DNA of 64,000 nt from Gemmatimonadota bacterium (GTDB lineage: Bacteria > JBHIER01 > G020348925), in contig CP070758.1 in the NCBI GenBank assembly GCA_020348925.1, positions 1,834,030-1,898,029 of the forward strand, in the 5' to 3' direction. Below are positions 2,406 through 48,250 of this stretch, in pieces. Each line of letters opens with the position of its first letter. The first letter of the stretch is position 1. Under the pieces are notes generated by a model, which saw only the letters and a list, made by a program, of their open reading frames with translations, was not told where the DNA came from and did not search any database. Position numbers and translations under genes: made by a program.

Positions 2406-4235
2406 ATGTCGAACGTCTTCAATCTGGTGAACGTCCGTGCTGATCAAAATCCCGAAGCCGTTGCCATTTCCGCCCCTGGACGCGGCCCGCTGACTTACGG
2501 TGGTCTGCGTAACCTCCTCGACCGTGTCGTCCGAAGGCTCAATGAAATGGGGGTGGGACGCAACGACCGGGTCGCTATTGTACTTCCCAATGGTCCTGAG
2601 ATGGCGACAGCCTTTCTGGCAGTATCCGCCGGGGCAACCAGTGCACCACTCAACCCAGTGTATGGTCCTGAAGAGTTCGACTTTTATCTGTCTGATCTCC
2701 AGGCCAAGGCACTCGTTATTCAAAGCGGGATGGATTCTCCGGCGAGAGGGGTGGCCGAAGAGCGCGGCATTGCTCTCATTGAGCTTTCGCCCGAGAAGGC
2801 GGCCGAGGCAGGTCTCTTCACCTTAGGGGGAGACCCAGCGATCCCTTCGGATCACGGTGGATGGGCACAGCCCGGGGATGTGGCTTTGATCCTGCACACC
2901 TCCGGGACAACGTCTCGACCGAAAATCGTTCCGCTCACAGGAGCCAATATCTGTACGTCCGCTCACAACACTCGATCCGCACTTGATCTGGCCGAGAGTG
3001 ATCGCTGTCTGAACGTCATGCCACTGTTTCATATTCACGGTCTCATCGGTGCGACGCTCTCGTCCCTGGCGGCAGGTGCAGAAATTGTATGTACACCGGG
3101 CTTTGATGCACTCAGGTTCTTTGAGTGGATGGAGGCCTTCCGACCGACCTGGTACACAGCAGTGCCCACCATGCATCAGGCCATCCTTGAGCAAGTCAAA
3201 AAAACCCAGGAAATTATCGAGCGCAGCCCGCTTCGATTTATTCGTTCCTGCTCCGCCTCTCTGCCGCCTCAGGTCATGATGGAGCTTGAACAGAAGTTCA
3301 ATGTGCCCGTCATTGAATCCTACGGCATGACCGAAGCATCGCATCAGATGGCCAGCAACCCCCTACCGCCGGGAAGGCGAAAACCCGGCTCGGTGGGTGT
3401 CGCGGCGGGCCCGGAGGTGGCCGTCTTCGACGAGGCCGGCCACTCGCTGCCCCAGGGCGAGACAGGTGAGGTTGTCATTCGCGGGCCGAACGTAACAGCG
3501 GGGTACGAGAACAATCCGGAGGCGAATAAAGCCGGGTTCACCAACGGTTGGTTTCGAACAGGCGATCAGGGCTATTTTGATACCGATGGCTACCTCTTCC
3601 TGACGGGCCGCATCAAGGAGATTATTAATCGGGGCGGCGAGAAAGTAGCCCCGAGGGAGGTTGATGAAGCCCTCCTGGCTCACCCAGCTGTGACCCAGGC
3701 CGTCACCTTCCCGGTTCCCCATTCCACACTCGGTGAGGATGTGGCCGTGGCTCTTGTGCTGCGAAAGAACACTTCGGCCACGGAGAAGGAGATGCGGCAG
3801 TTCGCTCTGACCCGTCTCGCCCATTTTAAAGTACCCAGCCAAATTGTTTTTGTGGATGAAATACCCAAAGGTCCGACGGGAAAGCTGCAGAGGATCGGCC
3901 TGGCTGAAAAGTTGGCTTCGAAACTCAGAGCAGAATATGTCGCACCCAGGGATCAAGCCGAAAAAACCCTGGCGAACATCTGGGCGGAGGTCCTCGGTCC
4001 CGAGCGAATCGGAGTGAATGATAACTTTTTCAGACTGGGTGGCAACTCCCTGCTGGCTGCACAGGTCGTTTCCCGGGTGCGCAAGGTGTTCCAGGTGGAG
4101 TTATCAGTGGAGACAGTCTTCAAGGATCCAACGTTGGGGGGGCAAGCCTCGCTTATTGCGGATTTGATCATGAAGGAGATAGAAGAGATGAGTGAAGAGG
4201 ATGCGCGGCGGCTCACCGAGGAATCGTCTGACTGA
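2406..4235 (+). CDS. Acyl-CoA synthetase (oxalate-CoA ligase/Pcs60-AAE3-like) fused to a C-terminal carrier domain; probable starter-loading didomain
   Basis: HTSGTTSRPKIVPL, PLFHIHGL, ESYGMTEASHQMASNPLP, WFRTGD, PKGPTGKLQR; carrier NFFRLGGNSLL. Start may be 2346 or 2406. Confidence 0.88.
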   Translation: MSNVFNLVNVRADQNPEAVAISAPGRGPLTYGGLRNLLDRVVRRLNEMGVGRNDRVAIVLPNGPEMATAFLAVSAGATSAPLNPVYGPEEFDFYLSDLQAKALVIQSGMDSPARGVAEERGIALIELSPEKAAEAGLFTLGGDPAIPSDHGGWAQPGDVALILHTSGTTSRPKIVPLTGANICTSAHNTRSALDLAESDRCLNVMPLFHIHGLIGATLSSLAAGAEIVCTPGFDALRFFEWMEAFRPTWYTAVPTMHQAILEQVKKTQEIIERSPLRFIRSCSASLPPQVMMELEQKFNVPVIESYGMTEASHQMASNPLPPGRRKPGSVGVAAGPEVAVFDEAGHSLPQGETGEVVIRGPNVTAGYENNPEANKAGFTNGWFRTGDQGYFDTDGYLFLTGRIKEIINRGGEKVAPREVDEALLAHPAVTQAVTFPVPHSTLGEDVAVALVLRKNTSATEKEMRQFALTRLAHFKVPSQIVFVDEIPKGPTGKLQRIGLAEKLASKLRAEYVAPRDQAEKTLANIWAEVLGPERIGVNDNFFRLGGNSLLAAQVVSRVRKVFQVELSVETVFKDPTLGGQASLIADLIMKEIEEMSEEDARRLTEESSD

Positions 4236-4280
4236 TGGTAGGAGATTGATGCTCGAGAGCATCACAAAGTGGAAGAAGAG

Positions 4281-7200
4281 ATGAAAAGGGATCGACCAAG
4301 AGACTCCTCGCTGTCGGAGCATCGAAAAAACCGAGTCAGTAACCTCTCCCAGGCCAAACAGACCCTGCTCGAAAGACGACTCAAGGGTGAGACGGTGGAC
4401 ACTTCCGAATCCCGGTCCATTCAACGGCGTCCGGATCGGCAGACGTTCCCTCTCTCCTTCGCTCAGGAGCGTTTCTGGTTTCTGGACCAGTTGGAGCCCG
4501 GCAGCCCGGCCTATAACCGCCCTTTCGCTCTTCGTCTTACCGGTCCCCTCAATGTTGCAATGTTGACCCAGATTCTCAACGAGATTCTGAGACGACATGA
4601 GGTTTTGCGTGCCACCTATACAGCGGTTGAGGGGAGGCCGGTTCAAACCATTGCTCCGGCCGAACCCGTGAACGTGCCGGTGATCGATATCAGCGGTCTC
4701 CCTGCCGGTGAGCGGGAGTCTCGGGCGAAGGCACTGGCCGCTGAAGAGGCGCAAAGATCTCTTGATCTGGCCCGTGGAACTATTCTGCGGGCGACGCTGC
4801 TCCGTTTGGGGGAAGAGGAGCACGTGTTGCTGTTGGTGATCCACCACATCGGTTTTGATGCCTGGTCGGCTCACGTGCTTACGCGGGAGGTCGCAACCCT
4901 CTACGAGGCATTTGCCTCGGGGAGGGCATCACCACTTTCTGAATTGCCCATTCAGTACGCCGATTATGCCGACTGGCAGAGGCAGTGGATGCAGGGCGAC
5001 ATCTTAGAGAAACAACTTGCCTATTGGCAGCAGAGGCTCGCCGATGCCCCACCTTCATTGGACCTGCTCACGGATTACCCTCGACCTTCGACTCAGACTT
5101 ACAGGGGTGCACGCCTACTCCTGGCGTTGCCCTCTTTCTTGGTAGACTCACTCAAGGCTCTTGGCCTAAGGGAGGATGTCACCCTATTCATGACATTACT
5201 GGCAGCTTTTAAAGTCCTCCTGCACCGGTACACGGGTCAGGAGGACATTGTTCTGGGAACTCCTATTGCCGGTCGCACCCATGTGGAGACGGAGCAATTG
5301 ATCGGGTTCTTCATCAATACGCTGGTCCTTCGGTCCGATCTCTCGGGCAATCCCAGTTATCGAGAACTCCTGGGTCGAGTCCGCGAGATGGCATTAGGAG
5401 CGTATGCCCACCAGGACCTGCCCTTCGAGAAGCTGGTGGAGGAGTTGCAGCCGGAGCGGAATCTGAGGAGCACGCCATTTTTTCAGGTGATGTTCAATTT
5501 GGAGAATATCCCTGAGAGGGCGATCGAGGTACAAGAATTACGCATTGAAGAATTTGAGTTTGACTCTGGGATACAGCCTTTTGAAATAACTCTGGAGATT
5601 GTTGAAAAAGAGGGACATCTCTCCTGTTCATTCGGTTACAGGACCGATCTTTTTGATGCGTCCACCGTAAAACGGATGTCGGTCCATTATCGGACCCTGC
5701 TGGAGGGAATCATCGCTGATCCGAATCAACGTATCGGAATGTTGCCGCTGTTGTCAGCCGCTGAGCGGCATCAATTGCTGGTGGAGTGGAACGACACAGA
5801 GACGGACTATGCCCGGGAGGCCTGCATCCATCACTTGTTTGAGGCCCAGGTGGAGCGGACACCAGAGGCAGTTGCGGTTGTGTTTGAGGAGCAGCAAATG
5901 ACGTACGGCGAGCTCAACGCCCGGGCCAATCAGCTGGCTCATTATCTCATTAAGAGAGGCGTCGGCCCGGAGGTTGTAGTAGGCATCTGTGCGGAGCGCT
6001 CACTGGAGATGGTCGTAGGGCTGTGGGGTGTTCTCAAGGCAGGAGGAGCATATGTTCCCTTGGATCCCACCTATCCAAAGGAGCGGTTGGCCTTCATGCT
6101 GGAGGACAGCCGACCCCAGGTGGTGGTGTCCCAACAGCGGCTGCCTGAGCGTCTTCCTCAGAACAACATCCATACGCTGTGCCTGGATTCGGAGTGGGAA
6201 ACCATTGATCGAGAGAATAGGAACAATCCCAGGTGCGATGTCAAGGCCCATCATCTCGCCTACATCATCTACACCTCAGGATCAACCGGAAAGCCCAAAG
6301 GAGTCATGATCGAGCACCGGTCACTGGTCAACCACACCCAAGCCGCAGGCGGGGAATACGATCTCAATCCGGATGACCGCGTTCTGCAGTTTGCCTCAAT
6401 AAGTTTCGATTTCAGTGCGGATGAGATCTATCCGTGTCTCACCCGTGGGGCAACCCTGGTGCTGCGGACGAATGCAATGATCCATTCTATCAAAAATTTC
6501 CTTCAAAAATGCCAGGCGTGGGCCATAACCGTCTTGGACTTGCCCACAGCATACTGGCATGAATTGACCTCCGTCTGTTCTTCTGAAGAACTGAGGCTGC
6601 CATCCTCCGTTCGCCTGGTGATAACCGGGGGAGAGCGAGCCCTTCCAGAGAGGGTGAACCAATGGTTGCTCACCGCAGGCGGAAATGTACGCTTCCTGAA
6701 CGGCTACGGTCCGACGGAAACAACCGTTCATGCTTCTTTGTGGGAACTGCCCAGGGCTACCAAGAGAGAAGCGGAATGGACAGAGGTACCAATTGGGCGG
6801 CCCAAGAGTAATATTCAAATATACCTCCTTGATCCATATCTGCAGCCGGTTCCCATCGGCGTAACAGGGGAATTTTTCATCGGCGGCGTTGGTCTGGCCC
6901 GCGGGTATCTCAACAGACCGCGTCTGACTGAGGAGAAGTTCGTCCCGAATCCTTTCAGCCCTAAGCAGGGCTCGCGTCTTTACAGAACAGGGGACTTGGG
7001 CCGTTATCTGCCTGACGGCAACATCGAGTTTCTGGGCCGCACGGATCACCAGGTGAAGATCCGGGGATTCCGCATCGAACTCGGTGAAATCGAGTCGGTA
7101 CTGAGAAAACATCCGCTGGTGCGGGAGGTCGTCGTTTTGGCTGCCGAGCATGAACATGGTGACAGACGCCTGGTCGCTTATATAGTGCCGACTCAGGGTG

Positions 7201-7700
7201 CGACTCTCCCGGTCAGTGAGCTGCGGGATTTTGTGCATAAGAAGCTGCCCGAGTATATGATGCCTTCGATGTTTGTGACTCTGGACACTTTGCCTCTGAC
7301 GCCCAACGACAAAGTCGATCGGGGGGGGTTACCGAAACCTAATTGGACCAAACGCGATTCGGATGTCCCTTTTGAAAAACCTCGTACTAATGTTGAAGCA
7401 GCTGTGGCGGAGATCTGGAGCAAGATTCTGGGGGTCGAGCAGGTGAGTGTCCATGACAACTTTTTCAATCTGGGGGGTCATTCTCTGTTGGCAACACGCG
7501 TTGTCTCAAGGATAGTCGATGTCCTCCAGGTGGAATTACCCCTGCGATCCCTCTTTGAATCGCCCACAGTGGCTCAGCTTGGAGCCGTCATAGACAAGGT
7601 GAAGGGTACGAGTATCAAGCCCGCAACACCACCCATCGTGCCTGTCTCAAGAAAAAGATACAGAATGAGACGATCCCCTTCGGGGGAGCTGTTGAAATGA
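4281..7700 (+). CDS. NRPS module C-A-T
   Basis: LSFAQERFWFL, HHIGFDAWS, YTSGSTGKPKG, NGYGPTE, YRTGD, GGHSLL. By-eye pocket code is about DFDDIGGVHK (acidic, suggesting a basic amino acid). Confidence 0.95.
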   Translation: MKRDRPRDSSLSEHRKNRVSNLSQAKQTLLERRLKGETVDTSESRSIQRRPDRQTFPLSFAQERFWFLDQLEPGSPAYNRPFALRLTGPLNVAMLTQILNEILRRHEVLRATYTAVEGRPVQTIAPAEPVNVPVIDISGLPAGERESRAKALAAEEAQRSLDLARGTILRATLLRLGEEEHVLLLVIHHIGFDAWSAHVLTREVATLYEAFASGRASPLSELPIQYADYADWQRQWMQGDILEKQLAYWQQRLADAPPSLDLLTDYPRPSTQTYRGARLLLALPSFLVDSLKALGLREDVTLFMTLLAAFKVLLHRYTGQEDIVLGTPIAGRTHVETEQLIGFFINTLVLRSDLSGNPSYRELLGRVREMALGAYAHQDLPFEKLVEELQPERNLRSTPFFQVMFNLENIPERAIEVQELRIEEFEFDSGIQPFEITLEIVEKEGHLSCSFGYRTDLFDASTVKRMSVHYRTLLEGIIADPNQRIGMLPLLSAAERHQLLVEWNDTETDYAREACIHHLFEAQVERTPEAVAVVFEEQQMTYGELNARANQLAHYLIKRGVGPEVVVGICAERSLEMVVGLWGVLKAGGAYVPLDPTYPKERLAFMLEDSRPQVVVSQQRLPERLPQNNIHTLCLDSEWETIDRENRNNPRCDVKAHHLAYIIYTSGSTGKPKGVMIEHRSLVNHTQAAGGEYDLNPDDRVLQFASISFDFSADEIYPCLTRGATLVLRTNAMIHSIKNFLQKCQAWAITVLDLPTAYWHELTSVCSSEELRLPSSVRLVITGGERALPERVNQWLLTAGGNVRFLNGYGPTETTVHASLWELPRATKREAEWTEVPIGRPKSNIQIYLLDPYLQPVPIGVTGEFFIGGVGLARGYLNRPRLTEEKFVPNPFSPKQGSRLYRTGDLGRYLPDGNIEFLGRTDHQVKIRGFRIELGEIESVLRKHPLVREVVVLAAEHEHGDRRLVAYIVPTQGATLPVSELRDFVHKKLPEYMMPSMFVTLDTLPLTPNDKVDRGGLPKPNWTKRDSDVPFEKPRTNVEAAVAEIWSKILGVEQVSVHDNFFNLGGHSLLATRVVSRIVDVLQVELPLRSLFESPTVAQLGAVIDKVKGTSIKPATPPIVPVSRKRYRMRRSPSGELLK

Positions 7701-10700
7701 GCGGTGATCAACGAGCCGTCGGGAAGGTTCAATTTACACCCATAATGACTCCTGTTTCAAACAAGGAAGCTCACGAATATTCGGAGGAGGTGTTCGTCTT
7801 TCCCACCTCCTTCGCCCAGCAGCGGCTGTGGTTCCTTGACCGGTTGGAGCCCCAGAGTCCTGCCTATAATATCCCGATTGCCCTTCGTCTGAAGGGTCGG
7901 CTCAATGTGAGGGCACTGGAGCGCAGTTTCAATGAGATCGTGAGACGTCATGAAGTGCTGCGGACGACCTTTGCCGAGATGGACGGTCAACCCGTCCAAG
8001 TTATAGCTCCAAGCTTGCGTTGGAGACTGAAGCTGGTTGACGTGCAAGAGTTGCCCGAAGCAGACCGGGAGATCGAAACCCGCCGTCTGGCTGCCGAGGA
8101 GGCTCAAAGGCCCTTCGATTTGGCTCAAGGACCCCTCTTGAGGACGACCCTGGTACGGCTGAAAGAAAAAGAGCACGTTCTGCTCTTGACCGTGCACCAC
8201 ATCGTCTCGGACGGTTGGTCCACGGGGATCCTCTTCCGAGAGATTTCGGTCTTCTATGAATCTTTTTCCGCAGGGAAAACTTCGCCGCTCTCTGAGTTGC
8301 CTATCCAATACGCCGACTTCGCCGTGTGGCAGCGGGAATGGCTGCAGGGGGAGACTTTGGAGGCACAGCTCTCCTATTGGAGAGAGCAACTTGCCGGCGC
8401 ACCTCCATCGCTGGAGTTCCCCACTGATCGCCCCCGGCCTCTCATGCAGACGTATCGAGGTACACGCCAATTTCTGGTGCTGTCCGAGAAACTGACGGAG
8501 ACGATCAAGGCGCTGAGCCAGCGGGCGGAGGTTACCCCTTTCATGACGCTACTGGCGGCGTTTTCAGTTCTGCTCAAGCGCTATACCGGCCAGGACGACA
8601 TTGTCGTGGGTACCCCCATCGCGGGTCGGAACCGGCCTGAGATCGAGGGATTGATCGGATTCTTTGTGAACACCCTGGTGATGCGAACCGACCTTTCGGG
8701 AAACCCCGGTTTTCTGGAGGTGCTTGGTCGGGTCCGAGAGGTATGTTTGGGGGCATACGCCCACCAGGATGTGCCTTTCGAGAAGCTGGTTGAGGAACTT
8801 CGGCCAGAGCGAAATCTCACTCAGTCGCCCATGTTTCAGGTGATGTTCGTCCTCCAGAATGCGACGGATTCCGCACTGGAACTCAAGGACGTGACATTGA
8901 ATTCACTGGAAGTGGACACCGGGACAGCCAAATTTGATCTGGCCCTCTCGGTCATCGATGGTGCGGAGGGACTGAATGGAATATTGTATTACAACACCGA
9001 CCTATTCGATGCTCCCACTATCAACCGGATCCTGAAACATTATGAGAACTTGTTGGAAGGTATTGTTGCCGATCCCGAGCAGACGGTCTCGACATTGCCC
9101 CTCTTGACGGAAACCGAGCGGAACCGGATTCTGGTGGAGTGGAATGATACGGTTACTGACTATCCTTCCACATCCTGCATCCATCAACTGTTTGAGGCTC
9201 AGGTCGAGCGAACACCCGAGGCCATTGCGGTACAATGTGAGAAGAAGCAGTTGACGTATCGTGAGCTGAACGCGCGGGCCAATCAACTGGCCCACTACCT
9301 CCAGACACATGGGGTCGCTCCCGAAGTATTGGTAGGCATCTGCCTCGAGCCTTCGTTGGACATGGTGGTGGGGATGCTGGGTATTCTCAAGGCAGGGGGA
9401 GCCTATGTGCCCTTGGACCCGGCCTATCCAAAGGAGCGCTTAACCTTCATGCTATCGGACTCTGGAGCGTCCATACTCTTGACCCACAAAACACTTTCAG
9501 ATAACCTGCCAGAACACCATGCCAGGTCCATTTTCCTCGATTCCGACTTGATTCGTATATCTCAAGAAGAGATGGGCAATCCCGTCTGCGGGGCGACAGC
9601 CTGGAACCTGGCCTATCTCATCTATACTTCGGGTACGACAGGCCTACCCAAAGGGGTGTTGATCGAGCACAGGGGTTTGTGCAATCTTGTCGAATCCGTT
9701 AAACATTACATAGGGCTCAAGCCGGGAAGACGTGTCCTCCTGAGCTACTCCTTCGGCTTTGATGCATCAGCGAACCCCATATTTACGACCCTCTGTTCTG
9801 GGGCGACCATCTATCTGGCCCCCGCGAATTTCCTCCTGCGCGGAACCGGTATATTTCAAACCATGCGCCATCAGGCCATTACGGACGCATTCTTTCCACC
9901 GTCCTTTTTGGCCGCCCTCCCCTTTGAACCTCTGCCTCTCCTACAGACGCTCACCGTCGGCGCCGAAGCCTGTCCTGCCGTGGTCATATCCCGGTGGGCT
10001 CCAGGTCGGCGATTCTTCAATGCTTACGGACCGACGGAAGCAACGATCCGTGCCACCGTGGCTGAATGCACGGGAGACGATTGGAGGCCAACCATCGGTC
10101 GCCCAATCGCCAACACGCAGGTCTACATCCTGGATCGCCATCTCCAACCAGTGCCCATCGGGGTGCCCGGTGAGCTGCATATTGGGGGAGTGGGCTTGGC
10201 CCGGGGGTATCAGAACCAGCCGGAGCTGACGGCTGAAAAGTTCATCCCGAATCCCTTCGGCGACGAGCCAGGAGCACGCCTCTACAAAACCGGTGATCTG
10301 GCGCGCTCTATGCCGGACGGCACCATTGATTTCCTGGGGCGCTTCGACCATCAAGTGAAAATCCGCGGGTCCCGCATAGAGTTAGGGGAAATTGAGACGA
10401 CGCTGGGCCAGCATCCAGCGGTGCGGGAGGTGGTTGTCACAGTTCAGGCGCATGAGTCCGGTGACAATCGCCTGGTAGCATATGTGGTTGCAGATCAGCA
10501 CACGGCTCCCACAGTACGTGAATTACGGAGTTTTCTGCAGGAGAAGTTGCCCGAATATATGGTGCCCTCAACATTTGTGATGCTGGCTGGATTACCCCTG
10601 ACACCCCACGGTAAAGTGGACCGCCAGGCGCTTCCAGCACCTGATCGGATTACATCCGACCTGGAGAGAACATTCATTCGTGCTCGGGATGCGCTGGAAT

Positions 10701-11707: not shown

Positions 11708-12153
11708 TATACCTGATCAGCACTGTTTGCGGATGGTTGGTGGCAGATGATGGGCAAAGCCTTTCGCGGCGGAACTGAACTTCTCTGGTCGGTTTCCGAA
11801 CGTTGTCCAGTGAGCCGGAGGTTGTGCAGAACTCGTACCAGACATGCCCAAGAGGATATCCCTTTTGGTTTTCTCTATAAGAAAAGAGAGAAAAATGACA
11901 GAGAATTATTGTCTGTCGTTTAAAGAATGATTTTATTATGGATATTGGTTTTAGAATAGTCTTGATCTGACTTTGACATACTCTCGATTTCGATGAAGAG
12001 CACCATGAAGCTCGAATCCAGATTTATGATGAATATGAACGATCGAGCGGCGCTGAGACCGATATCGATATCAATGGCGACACGTGCAATGCTCGCATTC
12101 AGTTTCACGCGATACATCCAGTGGTCCGAAATTCAGAAAAGAAAGGTGAGGTG

Positions 12154-12879: not shown

Positions 12880-12880
12880 A

Positions 12881-19552: not shown

Positions 19553-19964
19553 GTCAACCAAGGATTCCAGCAGGCGCGGGGAGTCGTTGATTGAAGATGG
19601 TCTTGTTTCATTCTGAAAAATGAACGTTCTATAAGTGCGCAGCCGAACCATTTCCAACCTCGTATGATAGTCTTGTGATTGTTGGAAACTTTTGCAATAT
19701 CGTGGCAATAATCGTGCTCTGAGTTTTTGAGATCACTTTATTATTGCTCCTTGCACTTTTCATAAGGAGATATATATATTATCAAATCTTTGATCAAGAA
19801 GCTGTGGTGAAGTGTTCTCGCGTCAGGAGTGTAATCCTGTGCAATTTTCGGACAAGGTCAAAACGACTAAGAACTTATCAATAGCATATAGCTTTCAGCA
19901 TTTTACTCAGTTTCATGCCTTTGGGCCTCTATTGAATTCTGAGATTGAGAGGAGGAATCTATCC

Positions 19965-23295: not shown

Positions 23296-23309
23296 ACCTG
23301 AAGACGCTT

Positions 23310-28207: not shown

Positions 28208-28373
28208 ACCTTCGCATTCTGTCCCATGAGACAATCAAAACAAATGAAGGGACATCAGAGGACACGAAAAAAAGACAGGAAGGGACTCTCACTGATTCAT
28301 TGCTCTAATAGTCTCCACTGCAACATCCCAGTCCGGCATACGCGACTTCTTATTTCATCGGTAAAAAATACAC

Positions 28374-42500: not shown

Positions 42501-43516
42501 GCATCAAACCCATCGGTGTCAGGGACAGCTTCTTCGATCTGGGCGGACATTCACTTCTCGCAGTGCGCTTGTTCGCACAGATCGAAAAGATGCTTGATAA
42601 AAAACTTTCCCTGGCAAATCTCCTCGAGGCACCGACGGTTGAGCAGCTCGCTGGCCTTCTTCGCCAGGAAGGCGAGCCAGCACACTGGTCTTCATTAGTG
42701 GCCATTCAATCCGAAGGCACCAAACTGCCCTTCTTCTGGGTACCTCCGGCCGCGGCTGATGTCATCAGCTTGGCAGATCTCGCCAGGCATCTGGGACCGG
42801 ATCGACCCTTCTATGGACTCCAACCTCTGGGATTGGAGGGGAATCAATCTCCCCATGCCCACGTTGAGGAGATGGCCGCCCATTATATAAAAGAAATACG
42901 CAACATTCAGTCTGAAGGTCCTTATCTTTTGGGAGGAATCTGTTTCGGAGGCATTGTGGCGTTCGAGATGGCTTGCCGGCTTCATGAGCAAAATGACTCT
43001 GTGGCTTTCCTTGCTCTCTTGGATTCCAGTCAGCCACCCCCCCTGATATCGCTGCGGGATTATGTTCCCCGTTTACTCCTCCACCATTTACCGAGGGGAC
43101 AATTGACCTACTGTCTCAAGAAAGACCTGAGAGAGAAGGGAACAAAGTGGAAATGGAAGCTGTCCCGGAGTCATGGAGGCCGCCGTTTCTACAGGGTGTG
43201 GAATGTTCATGAAACGGCACGGAGAGCATACGTACCCCGTCCTTATCCGGGTCGGATCACCCTCTTTGAGAGCCGCGAATTTCGCATTCGTTTTCCCGAT
43301 TACGAGGCCCGGTGGTCCGCGCTGACCGAGGAGGGTTTGGATTGTCACACCATAGCGTGCGATCATGGCGATTTCCTGCATGAACCCTATGTCCGGATCG
43401 TCGCCGAGAAATTGAAAAACTGCCTCGAGGGTGTACCCTCTCAGAACGATGCTGGGAGAAATAAAAAGACTGCGTTGTCAAGAGCCCCCATTATAAACAG
43501 GGAGTTGTTAGGTTGA
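39515..43516 (+). CDS. NRPS module C*-A*-T-TE with a degenerate C motif, non-canonical A domain and Cys-type TE
   Basis: MHRIIADNWS (no second His), YTSGSTGIPKA, GFTPFGAE, LYGTTE, GGHSLL; TE GGICFGG. Start at ATG 39515 after GGGAG. Confidence 0.92.
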   Translation: MSERSPLYPTSCAQQQLWFQAQLDPESHVSNIASAVRLHGSLRVPALERSLDEIARRHKALRTTFLTRAGQLKQVVAQSSIPRLPVHDLTVFPESEREDEARRLLTEKARRPFDLATGPLFLAGILRLGVDDHILFTVMHRIIADNWSLGIFFQEFFILYEAYSTGKSSPLPELTTQYHKFAQWQCKWMKSKSAEEQLSYWKQRLAHVPFTVNLPTDGSRHGSRRIHQGATQSLMLPESLSHSLRALSHQEEVTLPTILLAAWHVLLYRYTNQGEIVVGFTTEGRRRSGMEEPIGLCSNILALRMPPVRDNPAFRELLKRMRGVILEAYANQDVPFENVMEELQSQGDLDRTPQFQVAFQFDHRPDVASKPHGLDVKDFEFEKGISRHDVTLKIVEKVEELSCSFEYNTDLFEATTIARMGWHFKRLLEGIVDQPDEVISDLPLLTEGEWHQLLVEWNTVRVENFKEEFYHRSFEFQAERLSDAVAVVFEGEHLTYQELNVRANQLAHYLQALGVGPDVLVGMCMERSPELVVGVLATLKAGGACVPLDPTFPEDWFAFVLEDTDVQVVLTQDRLLKKLAGHTGHVICLDSAQENWDRESTENPVRDITSENLSFVYYTSGSTGIPKAVMQPYRKVDTTESLVSFTEEDRHLFKASIGFTPFGAEILTPLMTGGKMIIAEPGRSQDSTYLVPLITKHTVTYISVVPAMLRMLLEQDEIETCRSLKHVLSFGEPLPHDLRERFFTRTAANLYVLYGTTEAPSATFKMCQRGDDASSSGGFSIGRRLSGNRIHIMSLMGGMQPVPIGVPGELCCSGFNLARGYLNRPDLTAERFVPDPVGDEPGARLYKTGDLARYLPDGNIEFLGRIDHQVKLRGLRIELAEIEAILRQHVTVFEVAVVMREDEPGNNRLAAYVVPNQGSTISISELRSFLRVKLPEYMVPSAFVELDALSLTRNGKIDRQALPAPDRVRPEQGRAFIAPRDALENHLVKIWEKLLGIKPIGVRDSFFDLGGHSLLAVRLFAQIEKMLDKKLSLANLLEAPTVEQLAGLLRQEGEPAHWSSLVAIQSEGTKLPFFWVPPAAADVISLADLARHLGPDRPFYGLQPLGLEGNQSPHAHVEEMAAHYIKEIRNIQSEGPYLLGGICFGGIVAFEMACRLHEQNDSVAFLALLDSSQPPPLISLRDYVPRLLLHHLPRGQLTYCLKKDLREKGTKWKWKLSRSHGGRRFYRVWNVHETARRAYVPRPYPGRITLFESREFRIRFPDYEARWSALTEEGLDCHTIACDHGDFLHEPYVRIVAEKLKNCLEGVPSQNDAGRNKKTALSRAPIINRELLG

Positions 43517-45030
43517 AGAGAGATTCCGTTCGGCCCGAGAGTCGAGGTTCAGCGTTCACGCAACAGAACTATTCCCCTGGGGGTGCGATGATTGGGGGAA
43601 CGCTGGTACTCACGGGATCCCGGATGGTCTTTTTTGTGTGTGGTTACATTGTCCACGTTTTCCTGGCGAGATATTTACAGCCACAGTTGTTTGGCGTCTG
43701 GGGAGTCATTCTCGGAATCCTGACCGTCTATCAGATGATCGTAATGTCAGGACCTTCGAAGGCCATTTCAAAATTTACAGCGGAAAGAGCAGATCAAGCT
43801 CGATCGATTCAAAATCAGGGGTTGAAGATCCAGATCATTTTATCCGGCATACTGTGCGTATTCATGGGCATCGCAGCACACTGGATTGCGCGGCTACTCA
43901 AAGATTTGACACTGACTCCATATATTCGCGCCACAGTCTTTTTCTTTCCTGTCTATGCCTTGTATGCGGTCTATCTGGGTACGCTCAATGGGCTGCGTGC
44001 CTTTGATCGACAAGCACTGGTCATGACAGCTTACTCCTTGCTGCGAATGATAGGAATCGTGGCTCTCGTTCTGTTGGGCTACCGGGTGTACGGGGTACTG
44101 GGTGGCAGTTGGCTGGCCATGTTCGTAGCAATCTTCATCGCTCGTCGTTTCTGCACGTGTCCGGTAGCAGATCATACCTTTGAAGGGCAGCGAATTATTC
44201 GGTTCGCTCTTCCCGTGAGCTTCTTCGCCCTGGCCTTGGCCGCTTTTTCAAATCTCGACATTTTCCTTCTCAAAGCTCTCCTGGGAAGTAATGAGGATGT
44301 GGGGTTCTACACGGCCGCCGTCGTTCTTGTCAAAGTACCGTATCTGTTGCTCTTCGGGCTCAATACGACGCTGTTTCCGGTGGTGGCGCAATCCTTGTGG
44401 GACCCTACGTACTCCAAAGCGAAATTCTATATCAGCCGCTCACTGCGCTATGCTCTCCTCATCGTAACACCCACTGCGTTTGTAACAGCGGCCACTTCGA
44501 GAGAATTGATCCTCCTTATATACACATCACAATACATCTCCGCCTCGGAACCGCTCCGGATCCTCATTTTCGGGTATGTTTTTGCTTCGATCTTTATGAT
44601 CGCGTCAACAGTAATTATGGCCGTGGGGAAACCGAGGATCGCCATGGGTATCGTGTTCCTGATGGTTGGTTTGGACTTTGTACTCAATTATGCATTGATC
44701 CCCCAGTTCGGATTGACCGGTGCCGCGCTGGCGACATCTGCGGCCGCATTCATCGGCGTTTTCGGAGGACTGGCGTATATCTTTCGAAGATTCGGTCAAC
44801 TCTTGAATCCCATATCACTTGTAAAAATCACCGGTGTCTCAATTGGACTCTGTGTGCCTTGTGTTTTTTTCGATATGAGGGGCATGTGGTTATTGATATA
44901 TTACGCGGTTGCGATCGTTCTCTATATTGGTTTCCTGGCTCTTCTCAAGGAGCTCGGAGAAGAGGAATGGTCGATTTTCAAACGCGCCTTTGTTCCACAG
45001 ACAGTCCGGAAGCGCCACAACGGATCATGA
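43513..45030 (+). CDS. Polysaccharide flippase (Wzx-like, MOP/MATE superfamily)
   Basis: About 12-14 TM segments; LARYLQPQLFGVW, NLDIFLLKALLG, VGFYTAA, LIPQFGLTGAALATS. Start may be 43588. Confidence 0.88.
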   Translation: MKRDSVRPESRGSAFTQQNYSPGGAMIGGTLVLTGSRMVFFVCGYIVHVFLARYLQPQLFGVWGVILGILTVYQMIVMSGPSKAISKFTAERADQARSIQNQGLKIQIILSGILCVFMGIAAHWIARLLKDLTLTPYIRATVFFFPVYALYAVYLGTLNGLRAFDRQALVMTAYSLLRMIGIVALVLLGYRVYGVLGGSWLAMFVAIFIARRFCTCPVADHTFEGQRIIRFALPVSFFALALAAFSNLDIFLLKALLGSNEDVGFYTAAVVLVKVPYLLLFGLNTTLFPVVAQSLWDPTYSKAKFYISRSLRYALLIVTPTAFVTAATSRELILLIYTSQYISASEPLRILIFGYVFASIFMIASTVIMAVGKPRIAMGIVFLMVGLDFVLNYALIPQFGLTGAALATSAAAFIGVFGGLAYIFRRFGQLLNPISLVKITGVSIGLCVPCVFFDMRGMWLLIYYAVAIVLYIGFLALLKELGEEEWSIFKRAFVPQTVRKRHNGS

Positions 45031-45036
45031 TGACCT

Positions 45037-46227
45037 ATGCAAAAAACGACGAATGAGAATAACCGAGCATTGGACACATCTGAAATTGACTCTCTCATCA
45101 TAGTCACCAGCTCTTATGTCTATGTGCCTGAGGATGTTCTTATCAACTCAGGTGTGTTTGTCCGGGACTTTGCGCGGGCGCTTACGGAGCGTGGTGTACG
45201 AGTGACCGTTGTGACGCAGCACAGGAGCGCAGCCGTGCTGGTGGATCCAGGCATTGAGGTGATCGCATATCCATGGTCCGGAATGGATCGACAGCCGGTG
45301 GAATTGAGTTTCCACAGGTTGTCGGATTACGGTCACATCTGGTCACTGCTGCATGGCGGGATCAATGCGCTGCGCGGAATCTCGGTTTCGGATCAGAAGG
45401 TGCGCTGTCTGTGCATGTGGGCTGTGCCAGCCGGGTATATGGCCATGAAGGCCCTCCGTGGAACGGGCGTTCCGTACGACGTGTGGTGCCTGGGATCGGA
45501 CATTTGGCATTACGGAGGCAAGCGGTTTTCGCGGTGGCTCATAAAAAAAATCTTGCGAAACGCCCAGCATCTTTTTGCGGATGGCTATGTTTTACGAGAT
45601 GATGTGCAGAGCCTTTCTCGGCGAAACTGCACATTTTTAGCCAGCTCTCGAATGTTATCGGGAGAGACGGAGATTGTACCCCGTCTCGTACCAGGCAAAC
45701 CCAATCTGCTTTTCATCGGTCGATGGCATCCGAACAAAGGTGTCGATCTCCTTCCGGAGACGATGCGCTTCTTGAAAAATATGGGAGTGGACGCCCATCT
45801 TCATCTCTTCGGTGGCGGAACGCTTCAAGAAGAGTTGAAGACATTGATCTCAAAACATGGAGTGGAGAACGATATCACCCTCCATGGGTATGCGGATTCC
45901 GGCGTGGCTGTCGCCTATCTCAAAGCCTGTGATGTCTTAATTATTCCCTCACGTATCGAGAGTATCCCTATTATATTTTCTGACGCGGTCAAATGCAGAA
46001 TTCCGGTGGTCGCGACTGACGTCGGTGATTTGGGAATGTTGATTCGGGAGCATCAAATCGGTGAAGTCGTTCGGCCGAATTCGCCATTGATGCTGGCCGA
46101 GGGTGTTCAACTCGTGTTGAAGAAAGATCGATCCTTTTTTTCTCAGCAAGCCCTGAGAGTAGCGCGGCGTTTCGATGTGAGGGCTGCTGCGATGACATAT
46201 CTTCAAATTATAAAAACAGGAGCATAA
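45037..46227 (+). CDS. Glycosyltransferase, GT4/GT-B family
   Basis: LLFIGRWHPNKGVDLL, DVLIIPSRIESIPIIFSDA (E-x7-D), PVVATDVG. Confidence 0.9.
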   Translation: MQKTTNENNRALDTSEIDSLIIVTSSYVYVPEDVLINSGVFVRDFARALTERGVRVTVVTQHRSAAVLVDPGIEVIAYPWSGMDRQPVELSFHRLSDYGHIWSLLHGGINALRGISVSDQKVRCLCMWAVPAGYMAMKALRGTGVPYDVWCLGSDIWHYGGKRFSRWLIKKILRNAQHLFADGYVLRDDVQSLSRRNCTFLASSRMLSGETEIVPRLVPGKPNLLFIGRWHPNKGVDLLPETMRFLKNMGVDAHLHLFGGGTLQEELKTLISKHGVENDITLHGYADSGVAVAYLKACDVLIIPSRIESIPIIFSDAVKCRIPVVATDVGDLGMLIREHQIGEVVRPNSPLMLAEGVQLVLKKDRSFFSQQALRVARRFDVRAAAMTYLQIIKTGA

Positions 46228-46328
46228 CCATCCGAAAAACTGTCTCCCGGATGGTTACACTGATCAACGCGGAGAGAGACGGAACGTCAAAAGAGTGGAA
46301 AAATAGCCAGAACAAGGAAGTACTGTGT

Positions 46329-47477
46329 ATGGAAAAATACATCATTTTTGGTAGTCCTCACATTGAGGAGCAAGACATTCGAGAAGTTGTTGACTCGCTG
46401 CATTCGGGGTGGCTCTCCACCGGACCGAAAGTAGCGAAGTTCGAGAAAATGTTTGCGGACTATATCGGTGCGTCCCATGCCTGCGCTTTGGGTTCATGCA
46501 CCGCCGGTCTGCATCTGGCCCTGCTCGTCGTGGGAGTGAAGCCTGGAGATGAAATCATAACATCCCCGATGACCTTTGCTGCGACGGCCAATGTCATCGA
46601 ACACCTCGGTGCACAGCCTGTATTTATTGATATCGAGCGGGATTCTATGAACATTGATGTGAGTCAGATATCATCAAAGGTCACCAAAAGAACGAAGGCC
46701 ATTCTCCCCGTTCACTTTGCCGGAAGGCCGTGCGACATGGAAGCCGTAATCGAATTGGCGAAGAAGCATGATCTGCACGTGATCGAAGATGCTGCCCATT
46801 GTACAGAGGGAGAGTACCGAGGGCGAAAAATAGGGACAATCGGGGATCTGACCGCATTCAGTTTTTATGCTACGAAGAGCCTGAGCACCGGTGAGGGTGG
46901 CATGGTGACGACCCACAATGAACACTGGGCCGAAAAGATTAAAGTCTTAAGCTCCCATGGTCTGAGCAGAGATGCCTGGAAACGGTATTCTTCTGAAGGG
47001 AATTCGCATTACCAGGTCGTCGTACCGGGATATCCGTATAACATGATGGACCTTCAGGCGGCCATTGGAATACACCAACTGCTGCGACTCTCGAAATCTC
47101 TGCAGCGGCGTGATGAAATCTGGCGGATGTACGATGAAGCATTCGAGGATCTTCCGGTTGAAACGCCTGCCTCGGCTGAAACCGGGACAGTCCACGCCAG
47201 ACATCTCTATACGGTGCTGGTCGATTCCGAAAATGCCGGCAGATCGCGCGACGGCGTGCGTCGAATATTATACGAGCAAAAAGTCGGCAGCGGGGTCCAT
47301 TTCATATCACTGCACATGCATCCGTACTACGCCAACAAATACGGATATGCTCCCGAGGATTTCCCGAATGCGATGTACGTTTCGGAGCGCACAATGTCAC
47401 TGCCCTTGTCGTCGAAGCTGAGCGATGACGACGTTGCCCGGGTCATCGTGGCGGTCAAGAAGGCTCTGAGAAAATGA
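46329..47477 (+). CDS. DegT/DnrJ/EryC1/StrS family PLP-dependent (sugar) aminotransferase
   Basis: SGWLSTGPKV, SCTAGLHLAL, TFAATAN, VIEDAAH, SFYATKSLSTGEGG (PLP Lys). Confidence 0.93.
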   Translation: MEKYIIFGSPHIEEQDIREVVDSLHSGWLSTGPKVAKFEKMFADYIGASHACALGSCTAGLHLALLVVGVKPGDEIITSPMTFAATANVIEHLGAQPVFIDIERDSMNIDVSQISSKVTKRTKAILPVHFAGRPCDMEAVIELAKKHDLHVIEDAAHCTEGEYRGRKIGTIGDLTAFSFYATKSLSTGEGGMVTTHNEHWAEKIKVLSSHGLSRDAWKRYSSEGNSHYQVVVPGYPYNMMDLQAAIGIHQLLRLSKSLQRRDEIWRMYDEAFEDLPVETPASAETGTVHARHLYTVLVDSENAGRSRDGVRRILYEQKVGSGVHFISLHMHPYYANKYGYAPEDFPNAMYVSERTMSLPLSSKLSDDDVARVIVAVKKALRK

Positions 47478-48250
47478 TGAGTAACACAGAAGGCACCACG
47501 ACACCATCGCTAGTTACGTCGAACTCCGCTCCTGAGAGGCTCACAATAAATTCCAGCCAAGTGCATGTATGGTGTGCCGATCTGAATATACATTCAGATC
47601 GATTGCACAAGTATTATCACACACTTTCTGCCGACGAACGGGATCGAAGCGCGCGGTTCAAATTTCAAAAAGATCGTGACGGTTATATTGCCGCGCACGG
47701 TATACTTCGAGCCGTTTTAAGTCGATACGTGAATACAAAACCGTGTCAACTTCGTTTTTATGCGAACAATTTTGGCAAACCGTCACTGGACACATCGACC
47801 GGACCAGGGATGCCCCGTTTCAATATGGCGCACTCGAGTGGATTGGCCCTCTTCTGCATCTCCCGGGATCGTGAAGTAGGCATTGACCTCGAAACTATTC
47901 GTCCCCTTGATGAGATAAAGGAGATTGCCGCACAATCGTTCTCCCCGAAGGAGGTCGAGACGCTTCTGGCGCTCCCCGATAAGGAACAGGTTGAAGCCTT
48001 TTATACATGCTGGACCCGAAAGGAGGCGTATGTCAAGGCCAGAGGGATGGGATTGTCTCTGCCTCTCGATCGGTTTGACGTCTCTCTTTCGCCGGACGAA
48101 CCGGCCAGACTGTTGGCGTCCAGAGAAGATCCGCAGGAAACATTTCGATGGACCCTGATGGGATTCAACCCTCGTCCAAACTTTGTGGCAGCCCTTGCTG
48201 TAGCGGGCCATGGCTGGCAAGTGAAATTCTGGCACTGGTCTGATGAGTAG
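47474..48250 (+). CDS. Sfp-type 4'-phosphopantetheinyl transferase
   Basis: FGKP, FNMAHS, VGIDLE, WTRKEAYVKARG. Confidence 0.93.
   Translation: MMSNTEGTTTPSLVTSNSAPERLTINSSQVHVWCADLNIHSDRLHKYYHTLSADERDRSARFKFQKDRDGYIAAHGILRAVLSRYVNTKPCQLRFYANNFGKPSLDTSTGPGMPRFNMAHSSGLALFCISRDREVGIDLETIRPLDEIKEIAAQSFSPKEVETLLALPDKEQVEAFYTCWTRKEAYVKARGMGLSLPLDRFDVSLSPDEPARLLASREDPQETFRWTLMGFNPRPNFVAALAVAGHGWQVKFWHWSDE

Follow-up and report, generated by a model that had tools for sequence, protein, structure and literature searches.

This locus raises the question of whether ten single-module synthetases and five release domains, encoded together in a 46-kb cluster of a sediment bacterium, form one nonribosomal peptide synthetase (NRPS) line or several, and whether they serve one pathway. 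The window (the whole stretch of DNA that was analysed, 64,000 nucleotides) was scanned with Pfam over 28 + strand ORFs of at least 150 residues (family threshold, E 1e-5). The ten synthetases (N1–N10; 2346–43516) are all co-oriented on the + strand, with one PP-binding domain each and at most one module per protein. The features are listed below, with domains given as condensation (C; C* where degenerate), adenylation (A), carrier (T), thioesterase (TE) and terminal amidation domain (TAD), and with line numbers referring to the five lines proposed here.

2127–2155, +: putative sigma-70-like promoter 5′ of N1 (TTGACA-17 nt-TAATAT), a consensus match only
2406–4235, +: N1, A-T, oxalate-CoA-ligase-like, putative loader of line 1 (Pfam AMP-binding and PP-binding)
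4269–7700, +: N2, C-A-T, its C domain LCL-like (Pfam, alignment)
7697–11707, +: N3, C-A-T-TE, Cys nucleophile in GACMGG, putative end of line 1 (Pfam, alignment)
12154–12879, +: 2x[4Fe-4S] ferredoxin-domain protein (Pfam Fer4), with an uncharacterised C-terminal part of 180 residues
12881–13564, +: 227-residue protein of a widespread family without a name; its end overlaps the N4 start
13561–15585, +: N4, A-T, putative loader of line 2 (Pfam)
about 15575–19552, +: N5, C-A-T-TE, Cys nucleophile in GACMGG, putative end of line 2 (Pfam, alignment)
19812–22187, +: TonB-dependent outer-membrane receptor (Pfam Plug and TonB_dep_Rec_b-barrel)
22267–24853, +: ABC importer, comprising an NMT1/SsuA-type binding protein, ATPase and permease (Pfam, NCBIfam)
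24846–27467, +: N6, stand-alone A-T-TE, Cys nucleophile in GMCFGG; its start overlaps the permease gene end
27620–28207, +: MbtH-like protein, extended by 140 residues at its C terminus (Pfam MbtH, E 3.2e-19)
28374–31637, +: N7, C-A-T, putative first module of line 4 (Pfam)
31634–34951, +: N8, C-A-T (Pfam)
34948–39522, +: N9, C-A-T-TAD, putative end of line 4 (TAD at ~38305–39519, 400 residues)
about 39515–43516, +: N10, C*-A-T-TE, Cys nucleophile in GICFGG (Pfam, alignment)
43513–45030, +: MOP-superfamily (Polysacc_synt/Wzx-type) transporter; its start overlaps the N10 end
45037–46227, +: GT4 glycosyltransferase (Pfam, NCBIfam)
46251–47477, +: DegT/DnrJ/EryC1-type (sugar) aminotransferase (Pfam, NCBIfam)
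47474–48250, +: Sfp/HetI-type phosphopantetheinyl transferase (PPTase; Pfam, NCBIfam)

The synthetases are of the modular (type I) kind, with C, A and T core motifs and a PPTase at hand; the Ser motif is intact in all ten carriers and HHxxxD is kept in six of the seven C domains. The layout is not the collinear one with a single terminal release domain, as five single-module proteins each end in a release domain (four TEs and one TAD), giving lines of 1, 1, 2, 3 and 3 carrier proteins. An E domain is absent, because only one Condensation stretch occurs per C-bearing protein. At E 1e-5, Pfam detected neither PKS nor methyltransferase families in the scanned ORFs, and neither regulator families (profile scans) nor Rfam families were detected in the cluster. 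Intergenic gaps do not exceed ~450 bp anywhere in the cluster. These scans bear out an earlier note on this DNA, which had described ten carrier proteins with none multi-module, no E, PKS or methyltransferase domains, no recognisable regulator, and flippase/GT4/DegT and TonB/ABC genes in one co-oriented run (the last confirmed with Pfam and NCBIfam).

The first A domain proves to be oxalate-CoA-ligase-like and not a fatty-acyl ligase. The best PDB match of N1 is the Arabidopsis oxalate-CoA ligase 5ie0 (E 1.2e-137, residues 11–501 against 13–508). The oxalate pocket of eight residues includes Ser289 and His319, conserved exclusively among oxalyl-CoA synthetases (PMC8905533), and N1 shares six of the eight, both oxalate-specific ones included (equivalents of Ser289, His319, His216, Cys288, Met314 and Lys500), with Val215 changed to Ile and Ala313 to Gly. 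On the strength of this match and the two specific residues, a role as fatty-acyl ligase or loader was rejected. The plant and yeast oxalate-CoA ligases (AAE3, LsOCS; 5ie0, 6qjz) have the full-length alignment and the specific Ser and His in common with N1, but they make oxalyl-CoA for catabolism, whereas N1 differs at the two pocket residues, is fused to a PP-binding domain rather than free-standing, and would feed an NRPS C domain. The ligase–carrier fusion occurs in 119 of the 120 best N1 relatives listed (N1's own entry counted), and the C-terminal tail of N1 is docking-type. To judge from the pocket, the starter of line 1 seems to be oxalate, and the products of the cluster are therefore probably small peptides with a cap, of an as yet undescribed kind, in which the oxalyl-amide group could act as a metal binder.

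The A-domain pocket residues were read from an alignment with GrsA numbering. Asp235, the residue that binds the alpha-amino group (A-domain code position 1), is missing from three A domains, where the position is Gly (N4), Ala (N6) or Thr (N10); code positions 1–2 of N4 are Gly-Asp. In N2 both the third and the fourth code position are Asp, from which a cationic substrate is predicted. The pockets of N5 and N7 start D-T-E-Y, and a Glu in the third code position characterises one of the ways in which diamino acids are bound (PMC12042044); the N5 substrate is probably a diamino acid. Six 10-letter A-domain codes had no match in the literature. Among the C domains, N10 has HRIIADN where HHxxxDG is expected (HR instead of HH), and that of N7, which starts at residue 5, falls in the DCL/starter clade and is nearest to McyB C1 (E 3.8e-132) and the first C domain of PvdL.

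All four TEs (N3, N5, N6 and N10) have a Cys nucleophile within GxCxGG, with A-C-M, M-C-F or I-C-F at the Cys and its flanking residues. In the alignment to AB3403 of Acinetobacter baumannii (4zxh), Cys falls on Cys and Asp on Asp at the classical position; AB3403 is the sole other structurally characterised NRPS with a Cys nucleophile and Asp in the usual position (PMC11298585). AB3403 is likewise a single-module C-A-T-TE protein, its product uncharacterised in the literature found, but the cluster has four such TEs in one locus and TE identity is low (58.6 bits for a TE-only query against 4zxh). ObiF and SulM (beta-lactone and beta-lactam formation) share the GxCxG nucleophile motif, though their triad Asp sits in the second position and SulM also has Gln-Cys-Asn; given their classical Asp position and lack of a Gln-Cys-Asn motif, the cluster TEs were rejected as beta-lactone or lactam formers of this type. 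In the FR900359 (frs) pathway (PMC7794379), the TE of the monomodular FrsA (C-A-T-TE) is described as transferring a side chain onto the product of another line. The frs pathway resembles the cluster in its multiple lines and multiple TEs and in having a one-module C-A-T-TE protein, whose product in frs is attached to that of another line, but has two NRPS lines, one of them long and multimodular, against single-module proteins and five release domains here. With this as a precedent, the cluster TEs may catalyse acyl transfer rather than hydrolysis. The best TE match is 42–43% identical and the searches found no close relative of the cluster, in keeping with the earlier statement that this is not a characterised pathway.

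The earlier count of four TEs and one further terminus holds, but the 'reductase-like' identity given to the latter, a fair reading of the sequence, is ruled out by the match to the CarI TAD (PDB 9e4s/9e4x; E 8e-141, gap-free over 394 residues). The TAD signature consists of an invariant Thr-Thr-Gly, an Asp-Asp-Ser-Gly-Pro loop and the catalytic Cys2238 (Rankin et al., bioRxiv 10.1101/2024.10.28.620694), and N9 keeps all three elements (TTG, DDSGP and the Cys2238 equivalent), with the Cys 65 residues past the loop Pro as in CarI. The domain directly follows the T domain in a C-A-T module, the same domain type and post-carrier position as in CarI, VatR and HcaD (carmabin, vatiamide and hectoramide), but its host is a non-cyanobacterial sediment bacterium and it is followed by another TE-bearing synthetase in the same operon. 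By sequence, the N9 terminus is a terminal amidation domain with predicted amide release, a chemistry biochemically unproven even for CarI.

The genes for N10, the MOP transporter, GT4, DegT and PPTase overlap or sit ≤24 nt apart, and this translational coupling or near-coupling agrees with the earlier suggestion that an amino sugar or a surface glycan serves as scaffold for the assembly. Loci elsewhere also favour it: the order C*-A-T-TE, flippase, GT4 recurs at L126, and at L126/L128, L004 (Scytonema) and L047 (Nostoc) one-module synthetases with a same-family TE lie inside Wzx/Wzy/Wzc loci. These loci are not orthologous to the cluster (N10 is 41% identical to the L126 protein, no MOP match at E 1e-5, GT4 E 2e-11), and they have Wzy, Wzc and extra GTs, whereas no Wzy, Wzc/chain-length regulator, initiating phosphoglycosyl transferase or sugar-nucleotide gene was found in the window (28 ORFs, Pfam), which counts against the suggestion. 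A Wzx/Wzy-dependent surface-glycan locus was rejected, since the 28 scanned ORFs include, of its components and related genes, just the flippase-type transporter, a single GT4 and a single DegT protein (best NCBIfam matches ArnB and PseC, both under cut-offs). To our knowledge, the association of A-T-TE proteins with polysaccharide loci has not been described; the Dlt D-alanylation system offers a functional analogy. A DegT or close MOP homologue occurs at none of 160 loci with related TEs, so that this TE family is not regularly accompanied by the glycan genes. Joining to a glycan or amino sugar is nevertheless plausible, because flippase, GT4 and DegT are coupled to N10 and A-T-TE proteins occur in polysaccharide loci elsewhere. 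The TonB receptor (top NCBIfam match PqqU, far under cut-off) points rather to a diffusible product than to a surface glycan. It is a feature of siderophore clusters, though the importer has an NMT1/SsuA-type rather than a siderophore-type binding protein; no hydroxylase, DHB pathway or Cy domain, the sources of classic iron-binding groups, was found in the cluster (Pfam, NCBIfam), nor a Fur box with an E. coli-type pattern.

The gene junctions are genuine, because start and stop codons overlap, docking tails are present and contigs from two runs are gap-free. Within lines the overlaps are 4–11 nt and ATGA-type (the N3 ATG overlaps the N2 stop codon), N5 probably starts at ATG 15575 or 15596, later than the longest ORF, and the N10 start is likewise probably downstream of the longest-ORF start. 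Proteins that do not end a line have docking-type tails at the C terminus, matched by N-terminal extensions on the proteins downstream (N1–N2, N7–N8, N8–N9, and either N2 or N4 with either N3 or N5), and at 30–50 residues these exceed the length of a fused T–C linker. Independently assembled contigs of runs X1 and X2 span four junctions, N7/N8, N8/N9, N9/N10 and N10/MOP, where the alignments have 0 gaps and list no indel; the runs are from one study, possibly including the source sample. Assembly or frameshift artefacts of multimodular genes, which the earlier note had named as its own refutation and to which the source genome, a metagenome-derived scaffold with 20,500 N, lends some colour, were not seen at these four junctions and are extremely unlikely. 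A single longer peptide made by one non-linear line, whose internal Cys-TEs would shuttle or idle while one domain releases, is very unlikely, and we know of no precedent for such shuttling. Transfer from thioester to thioester at a Cys nucleophile is energy-neutral (ObiF discussion, PMC6668435) and N10, with its dead C domain, comes directly after the TAD protein, but N3, N5 and N10 lack a C-terminal docking tail past the TE, N4, N6 and N7 begin without a partner-type head, and characterised TADs occupy terminal modules. The terminal release domains, docking tails, overlaps and junction-spanning contigs instead make five separate short lines highly probable, as the earlier note had proposed in place of one long line, and its 'acyl-amino-acid or peptide units' are consistent with the line lengths.

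Our overall reading is a non-collinear NRPS locus in which five separate thiotemplate lines, with one release domain apiece, operate as one pathway (probability of about 0.45); that the lines are joined into one product is put forward tentatively. Two or three independent neighbouring clusters, each hydrolysing its own product with nothing joined, are a somewhat less probable alternative. The split would be an oxalyl-dipeptide cluster (N1–N3), an acyl-amino-acid or metallophore cluster (the Fer4 and 227-residue genes, N4, N5, TonB, ABC and N6) and a glycosylated peptide-amide cluster (MbtH, N7–N10, MOP, GT4, DegT and PPTase). The gap lengths (~410 bp 3′ of N3, 260 bp 3′ of N5 and ~150–170 bp around the MbtH gene) fit such boundaries, and with gaps of 150–450 bp after N3, N5, N6 and the MbtH gene there may be separate transcription units; a terminator-like hairpin lies 3′ of N3 (11848–11868), GC dips to 0.48–0.51 across 12–28 kb compared to 0.54–0.56 in the flanking synthetase genes, and in the TE family the terminal protein often has a single module (one carrier domain in 113 of 164 TE-bearing ORFs). 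The ten synthetases, however, have a single PPTase and a single MbtH gene between them, every gene points the same way, and all seven Condensation matches of the 5.04-Mb genome are inside the cluster. Close paralogues also cross the supposed boundaries (T domains of N3 and N5 84% and their TE domains 74% identical; A domains of N5 and N7 65% identical), lines 1 and 2 use the same tail-and-head docking type, and two release domains ≤10 kb apart are rare (4 of 160 loci with related TEs).

For the one-pathway reading, A-domain substrates and the membership of the lines are inferred from these features. In line 1 (N1–N3), N1 would load oxalate or a similarly small dicarboxylate onto its own carrier, the N2 and N3 modules would extend it, and the Cys-TE would free an N-oxalyl dipeptide. 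In line 2 (N4, N5), N4 would supply a non-alpha-amino acid, because its pocket is without the alpha-amino-binding Asp; a single amino acid, probably of the diamino type, would be condensed with it before the Cys-TE releases the product. Lines 3 (N6) and 5 (N10, counted here because its C domain is degenerate) would be single A-T-TE units, each activating one non-amino carboxylic acid, and are most likely acyl-transfer ('decorating') enzymes rather than peptide makers. In line 4 (N7–N9), the starter/DCL-type C domain would begin a tripeptide, possibly N-acylated, which the TAD would release as a C-terminal amide. Acyl groups bound to the Cys-TEs may pass to amines, either predicted diamino-acid side chains or an amino sugar made by DegT and GT4, and the product may exit via the MOP transporter and re-enter via the TonB-dependent receptor, like a metal-binding compound.

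The cluster is an orphan, with known domain types in a new arrangement. An unlikely, more specific version is a convergent 'branching' NRPS that makes a multi-armed glycosylated oxalamide metallophore, with Cys-TEs as ligases that would attach short peptides with oxalyl or other acid caps to the amines of side chains or to an amino sugar made by DegT, Wzx-type export and TonB reuptake. If true, the oxalyl-amide would be a chelator with no known example among siderophores, and the oxalate-ligase and carrier loader a widespread, unrecognised NRPS starter type.

The GC content of the cluster deviates mildly from that of the genome (0.526 compared to 0.497; 26 of 999 windows equal or higher). The MbtH-like protein has a weak CBF_beta match besides MbtH (Pfam), and the Atlas entry for the Fer4 protein covers residue 12 onward. 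The 227-residue protein matches no Pfam or NCBIfam family, and its AF2 model (mean pLDDT, 72.8) resembles no PDB fold at E ≤ 0.001; the protein has 1149 relatives, some of them Fer4-fused.

The plus strand carries all sizeable real genes between 2.3 and 48.3 kb of the window, which stems from a 5.04-Mb single scaffold assembled from sediment metagenomes. Ten of these genes encode NRPS proteins (N1–N10; 2406–43516), each with one PP-binding (carrier, T) domain according to Pfam and never with two modules in one protein.

Cluster proteins and their Pfam domain make-up
N1, + strand, A-T
N2, + strand, C-A-T
N3, + strand, C-A-T-TE
N4, + strand, A-T
N5, + strand, C-A-T-TE
N6, + strand, A-T-TE
N7, + strand, C-A-T
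N8, + strand, C-A-T
N9, + strand, C-A-T-X (X, the last 400 residues)
N10, + strand, C-A-T-TE
Between or after the N genes, ferredoxin-domain protein; 227-residue protein of no known family
Between or after the N genes, TonB-dependent receptor; NMT1/SsuA-type ABC importer; MbtH-like protein
Between or after the N genes, MOP/Wzx-type transporter; GT4 glycosyltransferase; DegT aminotransferase; Sfp/HetI-type PPTase

Epimerization (E), PKS, methyltransferase and regulator families had no Pfam match among the cluster proteins, no Rfam family matched in the window and a tRNA search found none. All Condensation matches of the whole genome (7/7) fall within the cluster. This and the domain inventory bear out the earlier description of a cluster built only from single-module NRPS proteins, with five release domains and both glycan-export and uptake genes. 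The cluster is real, orphan and unusual in organization, and belongs to a known kind, the NRPS; for its combination of an oxalate-ligase-type loader, four AB3403-type Cys-thioesterases, a terminal amidation domain (TAD) and two single-acid A-T-TE units, we could not find a joint description. Composition deviates mildly (GC 0.526 compared to 0.497 for the genome, with 26/999 same-size windows as high or higher; tetranucleotide distance ranked 7th of 109) and does not prove recent transfer. Between 10500 and 29000, neither promoter-like sites (16, 16.0 expected) nor terminator-like sites (15, 18.6 expected) were in excess. The 5.04-Mb ‘single contig’ contains 20,500 N, which may be scaffold gaps. 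Contigs of the two best public sequencing runs differ from the window at ~0.2–0.3% of positions and thus sample a population of closely related strains.

The separation of the modules into ten genes could in principle reflect an assembly artefact. Genes overlap by a few bases at N2/N3, N7/N8 and N8/N9, at N9/N10 and N4/N5 given the chosen starts (ATG 39515 and ATG 15575, respectively), and further at N10/MOP (the Wzx-type transporter gene, 43513–45030) and permease/N6. Independently assembled contigs from two runs, X1 (27774–32346, 34294–42108 and 42079–44500) and X2 (33155–36284, 38688–40277 and 41912–43630), aligned with 0 gaps and span N7/N8, N8/N9, N9/N10 and N10/MOP with no insertion or deletion; both runs belong to the same study and possibly include the source sample. 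Two runs from a second study (X3, X4) contributed pieces of 151–691 nt only, none spanning a junction. Non-terminal proteins continue for 26–45 residues past the carrier domain and their partners begin 8–56 residues ahead of the C domain, lengths that would be more than a fused T-C linker needs. An artefact is unlikely.

The ends of the proteins suggest how they are ordered. Similar acidic helical tails close N1, N7 and N8, while N2, N8 and N9 have N-terminal extensions of one matching, recurring type. Pro/Arg-rich C-terminal tails occur on N2 and N4, and N3 and N5 start just ahead of an identical ‘VFVFPTSFAQ’ entry to the C domain; N6 and N10 are without partner elements. We take the tails and heads of N1–N5 and N7–N9 to be docking elements, the types of which give the orders N1 to N2 to N3, N4 to N5, and N7 to N8 to N9. 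The result is five short lines with 3, 2, 1, 3 and 1 carrier proteins (lines 1–5; N1–N3, N4–N5, N6, N7–N9 and N10), each with its own release domain, a reading to which we assign a probability of roughly 0.85. The docking types shared by lines 1 and 2 would leave room for cross-talk between them.

No Pfam family covers the C-terminal 400 residues of N9, which match PDB 9e4s/9e4x over 394 gap-free residues (E 8e-141). These entries are the ‘putative terminal amidation domain’ of carmabin CarI (Rankin et al., bioRxiv 10.1101/2024.10.28.620694), for which that preprint gives a three-part signature: an invariant Thr-Thr-Gly, a loop with the sequence Asp-Asp-Ser-Gly-Pro and, 65 residues past this loop, the catalytic Cys; in the alignment N9 has all three elements. 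The preprint places TADs in terminal modules of pathways with primary-amide-ended products and presents their chemistry as a proposal (10.1101/2024.10.28.620694). Because N9 ends in a TAD, it ends a line and N10 cannot continue it. A search returned 477 proteins with TAD matches at E ≤ 0.001 among 8000 scored (nearest, 61% identical), many of them one-module C-A-T-TAD proteins. Among 40 other genomes there were two weak matches only (29–30% identity; E 5.6e-9 and 9.3e-6), and the one same-family genome (87% complete) had no TAD and no C domain.

All four TEs (N3, N5, N6 and N10; mutually 42–74% identical) have a GxCxGG nucleophile elbow, and their Cys and following Asp align with those of AB3403 (4zxh), described in PMC11298585 as the only other structurally characterized NRPS with a Cys nucleophile and the classical Asp. 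The Asp is moved in both ObiF (β-lactone) and SulM (β-lactam), and SulM also has a Gln-Cys-Asn motif; the cluster TEs have neither feature and are therefore AB3403-like. A profile of the four TEs confirmed at least 570 relatives among 600 candidate stretches in species-representative genomes and at least 555 of 600 in metagenomes (best identity among the matches listed, 42% and 43%, respectively). Genome contigs scanned with N10 alone gave 54 matching stretches, of which 0 were confirmed. At the depth of these TE-profile scans of species-representative genomes and metagenomes, from which 160 loci were kept, there was no cluster closely related to this one. The TE nucleophile in the 160 loci was predominantly Ser (Ser, 138; Cys, 23; unclear, 3), one TE-bearing ORF occurred within 10 kb on each side in 156 loci and two in 4, and a single locus (L005) had a TAD, fused behind a TE. 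By these counts, four Cys-TEs and a TAD in one locus are unusual. The L005 ORF (1272 aa, Verrucomicrobiae MAG) reads A-T-TE-TAD, with the TE and TAD in tandem.

The predicted substrates differ between the lines. The adenylation part of N1 matched plant oxalate-CoA ligase structures (5ie0, 463 bits; 6qjz, 440 bits), compared to ~220 bits for the best matches that were neither oxalate ligases nor NRPS (4-coumarate-CoA ligase, malonyl-CoA synthetase). Within the eight-residue oxalate pocket of AtAAE3 described in PMC8905533, N1 keeps His216, Cys288, Ser289, Met314, His319 and Lys500 by alignment and changes Val215 to Ile and Ala313 to Gly. By sequence, N1 is thus best described as a carrier-fused enzyme of the oxalate-ligase-like type, and the simplest reading would be that line 1 is primed with oxalyl or with another dicarboxylate of comparably small size. 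The best NCBIfam match of N1, under cut-off, was the ‘FadD7 family’ model; an assignment as a fatty-acyl-AMP ligase on this match was dropped, as oxalate-CoA ligase structures match far better. The best 120 matches to N1 comprise its own entry (100%) and 119 relatives (61–85% identical) from many phyla, none specifically named, with PP-binding in 119 of the 120, a thioesterase also in 18, a hexapeptide transferase in 4 and a C domain in 1; the fusion is thus widespread and common in environmental bacteria. Three of the 160 loci (L020, L111 and L146) have an N1-type loader (61–66% identical) that adjoins C-A-T-TE/T-TE genes or is TE-fused, and these loaders keep the oxalate-specific Ser and His. 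The three are MAG and metagenome contigs, L020 from a Blastocatellia MAG. Judged from titles and abstract openings, no description of an oxalyl-loading NRPS was found in the literature; if N1 truly loads oxalate, it defines a non-ribosomal peptide starter unit for which no description was found.

The C domains of N2, N3, N5, N8 and N9 are mutually 53–70% identical and all have HHxxxD. That of N7, which begins at residue 5, is 26–31% identical to the other cluster C domains and closest to McyB C1, the first C domain of PvdL, TycB C1 and the SrfA-C C domain, a group that presumably accepts D-configured or fatty-acyl donors. With no E domain in the genome, N7 more likely takes an acyl donor. The N10 C domain has the motif HRIIADN and is probably inactive because the second His is Arg. 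A-domain codes were read from an alignment by GrsA positions, the first four offsets of which agree with the SulA3 numbering in PMC12042044. Because the Asp of α-amino-acid-activating A domains is replaced by Gly in N4, Ala in N6 and Thr in N10, these three should activate acids without an α-amino group. The codes of N5 and N7 begin D-T-E-Y and that of N2 D-F-D-D. According to PMC12042044, one mode of diamino-acid binding is marked by Glu at code position 3, whereas other modes use acidic residues at positions 4, 8 and 9; a cationic or diamino acid substrate for N2, N5 and N7 would therefore be a reasonable inference and no more. A literature search with six cluster A-domain codes found no match.

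From these assignments, the predicted products are an N-oxalyl dipeptide for line 1, one amino acid linked to a non-amino acid for line 2, and a tripeptide amide, perhaps with an N-acyl group, for line 4. N6 and N10 would act as A-T-TE units that each load one acid and pass it on, a hand-over proposed by likeness to the monomodular FrsA of the FR900359 pathway, which loads and passes on a side chain (PMC7794379). The lines could instead release separate products, which fits the intergenic gaps of 150–450 bp and the lower GC in the middle part of the cluster. However, a joint pathway is favored by the presence of only one PPTase and one MbtH gene, the co-orientation of all genes, T-TE and A domains that are close paralogues between lines, and docking types common to different lines. 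Weighing both sides, joining of the lines into one product is a tentative proposal, held at somewhat less than even odds.

The earlier note had suggested that acyl or peptide units are assembled on an amino sugar or surface glycan. The MOP gene starts before N10 ends, and the GT4, DegT and PPTase genes follow overlapping or within 24 nt, so that these four are very probably co-transcribed with N7–N10. Pfam found no Wzy, Wzc, initiating transferase or sugar-nucleotide genes in the window, which therefore does not encode a complete surface-glycan pathway; peptide glycosylation, or the acylation of a single amino sugar, would be a better fit. Companions of this kind were rare in the 160 TE loci (DegT, 0; close MOP homologue, 0; weak GT4 match, 5; TonB receptor, 1), which had a PPTase in 45 cases. 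Some of these loci are true polysaccharide loci that hold one-module synthetases. One of them (L126, 4713–20454) has, in order, a Wzc-like kinase, a C*-A-T-TE protein (C*, here half a C domain), a flippase, a GT4, Wzy, an A-T-TE protein, a GT4, a WecG-type GT and a GH10. Of the 160 loci, 8, 6 and 4 had homologues of its Wzc, flippase and Wzy, respectively, including those in Scytonema (L004) and a Nostoc lichen cyanobiont (L047). L128, L004 and L047 are, like L126, Wzx/Wzy/Wzc loci with one-module A-T-TE and half-C-A-T-TE synthetases. The L126 A-T-TE looks glycine-specific by its pocket residues, and loci of this type suggest polysaccharide aminoacylation of NRPS type. Their genes, however, are not orthologous to those of the window (N10 is 41% identical to the L126 protein). 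These loci show that A-T-TE enzymes of the cluster's TE family are used beside glycan machinery in some cases, and by analogy they keep the suggested attachment to an amino sugar or surface glycan alive.

The presence of a TonB receptor and an importer suggests that the product is taken back up, as a metallophore would be. Against this counts the binding protein of the ABC importer, which is of the sulfonate/NMT1 type; classical chelator genes were not found among the cluster proteins (Pfam, NCBIfam), and the E. coli Fur-box consensus had 0 matches at ≤3 mismatches. Alternatively, given the overlap of N6 with the permease gene, the importer might supply a precursor.

The locus unites release chemistries of three kinds that are poorly understood, those of the four AB3403-type Cys-thioesterases, of the TAD and of an A-T-TE whose C domain is probably dead, and offers a compact system for testing their function. 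Together with the polysaccharide-locus examples it raises the testable idea that sugars or glycans are decorated by one-module A-T-TE enzymes. As an orphan cluster of an uncultured sediment bacterium, it has the value of a lead and not yet that of a chemistry finding.

Several further genes in and around the cluster were observed. An arylamine N-acetyltransferase-family gene (317–1222; Pfam Acetyltransf_2, E 8.6e-9) lies on the same strand 1.1 kb upstream of N1 and might be a cluster member. Relatives in this family are amide synthases in some pathways (see a 2026 preprint on manumycins). The ferredoxin-domain gene and the gene for the 227-residue protein form a pair inside the cluster (12154–13564) that is absent from all 160 related TE loci and is not NRPS-locus-specific. 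The 227-residue family has 1149 relatives (50–84% identical among the matches listed), the majority of them in anaerobic Bacillota and metagenomes. No Pfam domain is assigned to any, and a few occur as fusions with Fer4 domains. An AF2 model of this protein (mean pLDDT, 72.8) had no Foldseek match in the PDB at E ≤ 0.001, with ferredoxin-like small domains only, all above that value, and an Atlas search with the Fer4 protein returned unnamed Fer4 clusters only. The MbtH-like protein (27620–28207) has a 140-residue C-terminal extension, for which Pfam gives only a weak CBF_beta match (E 1.7e-6); a strong match (E 2e-48) lies at 18260–18607 of the Stigonema locus L026. Just downstream of the cluster, where GC is 0.40–0.43, two ORFs of 720 and 338 residues (49008–51170 and 53626–54642) have no Pfam or NCBIfam match. 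The 1128-residue protein at 55438–58824 combines Reg_prop β-propeller repeats, Y_Y_Y and a SpoIIE-type phosphatase domain and is a sensor phosphatase, rather than having the usual kinase output.
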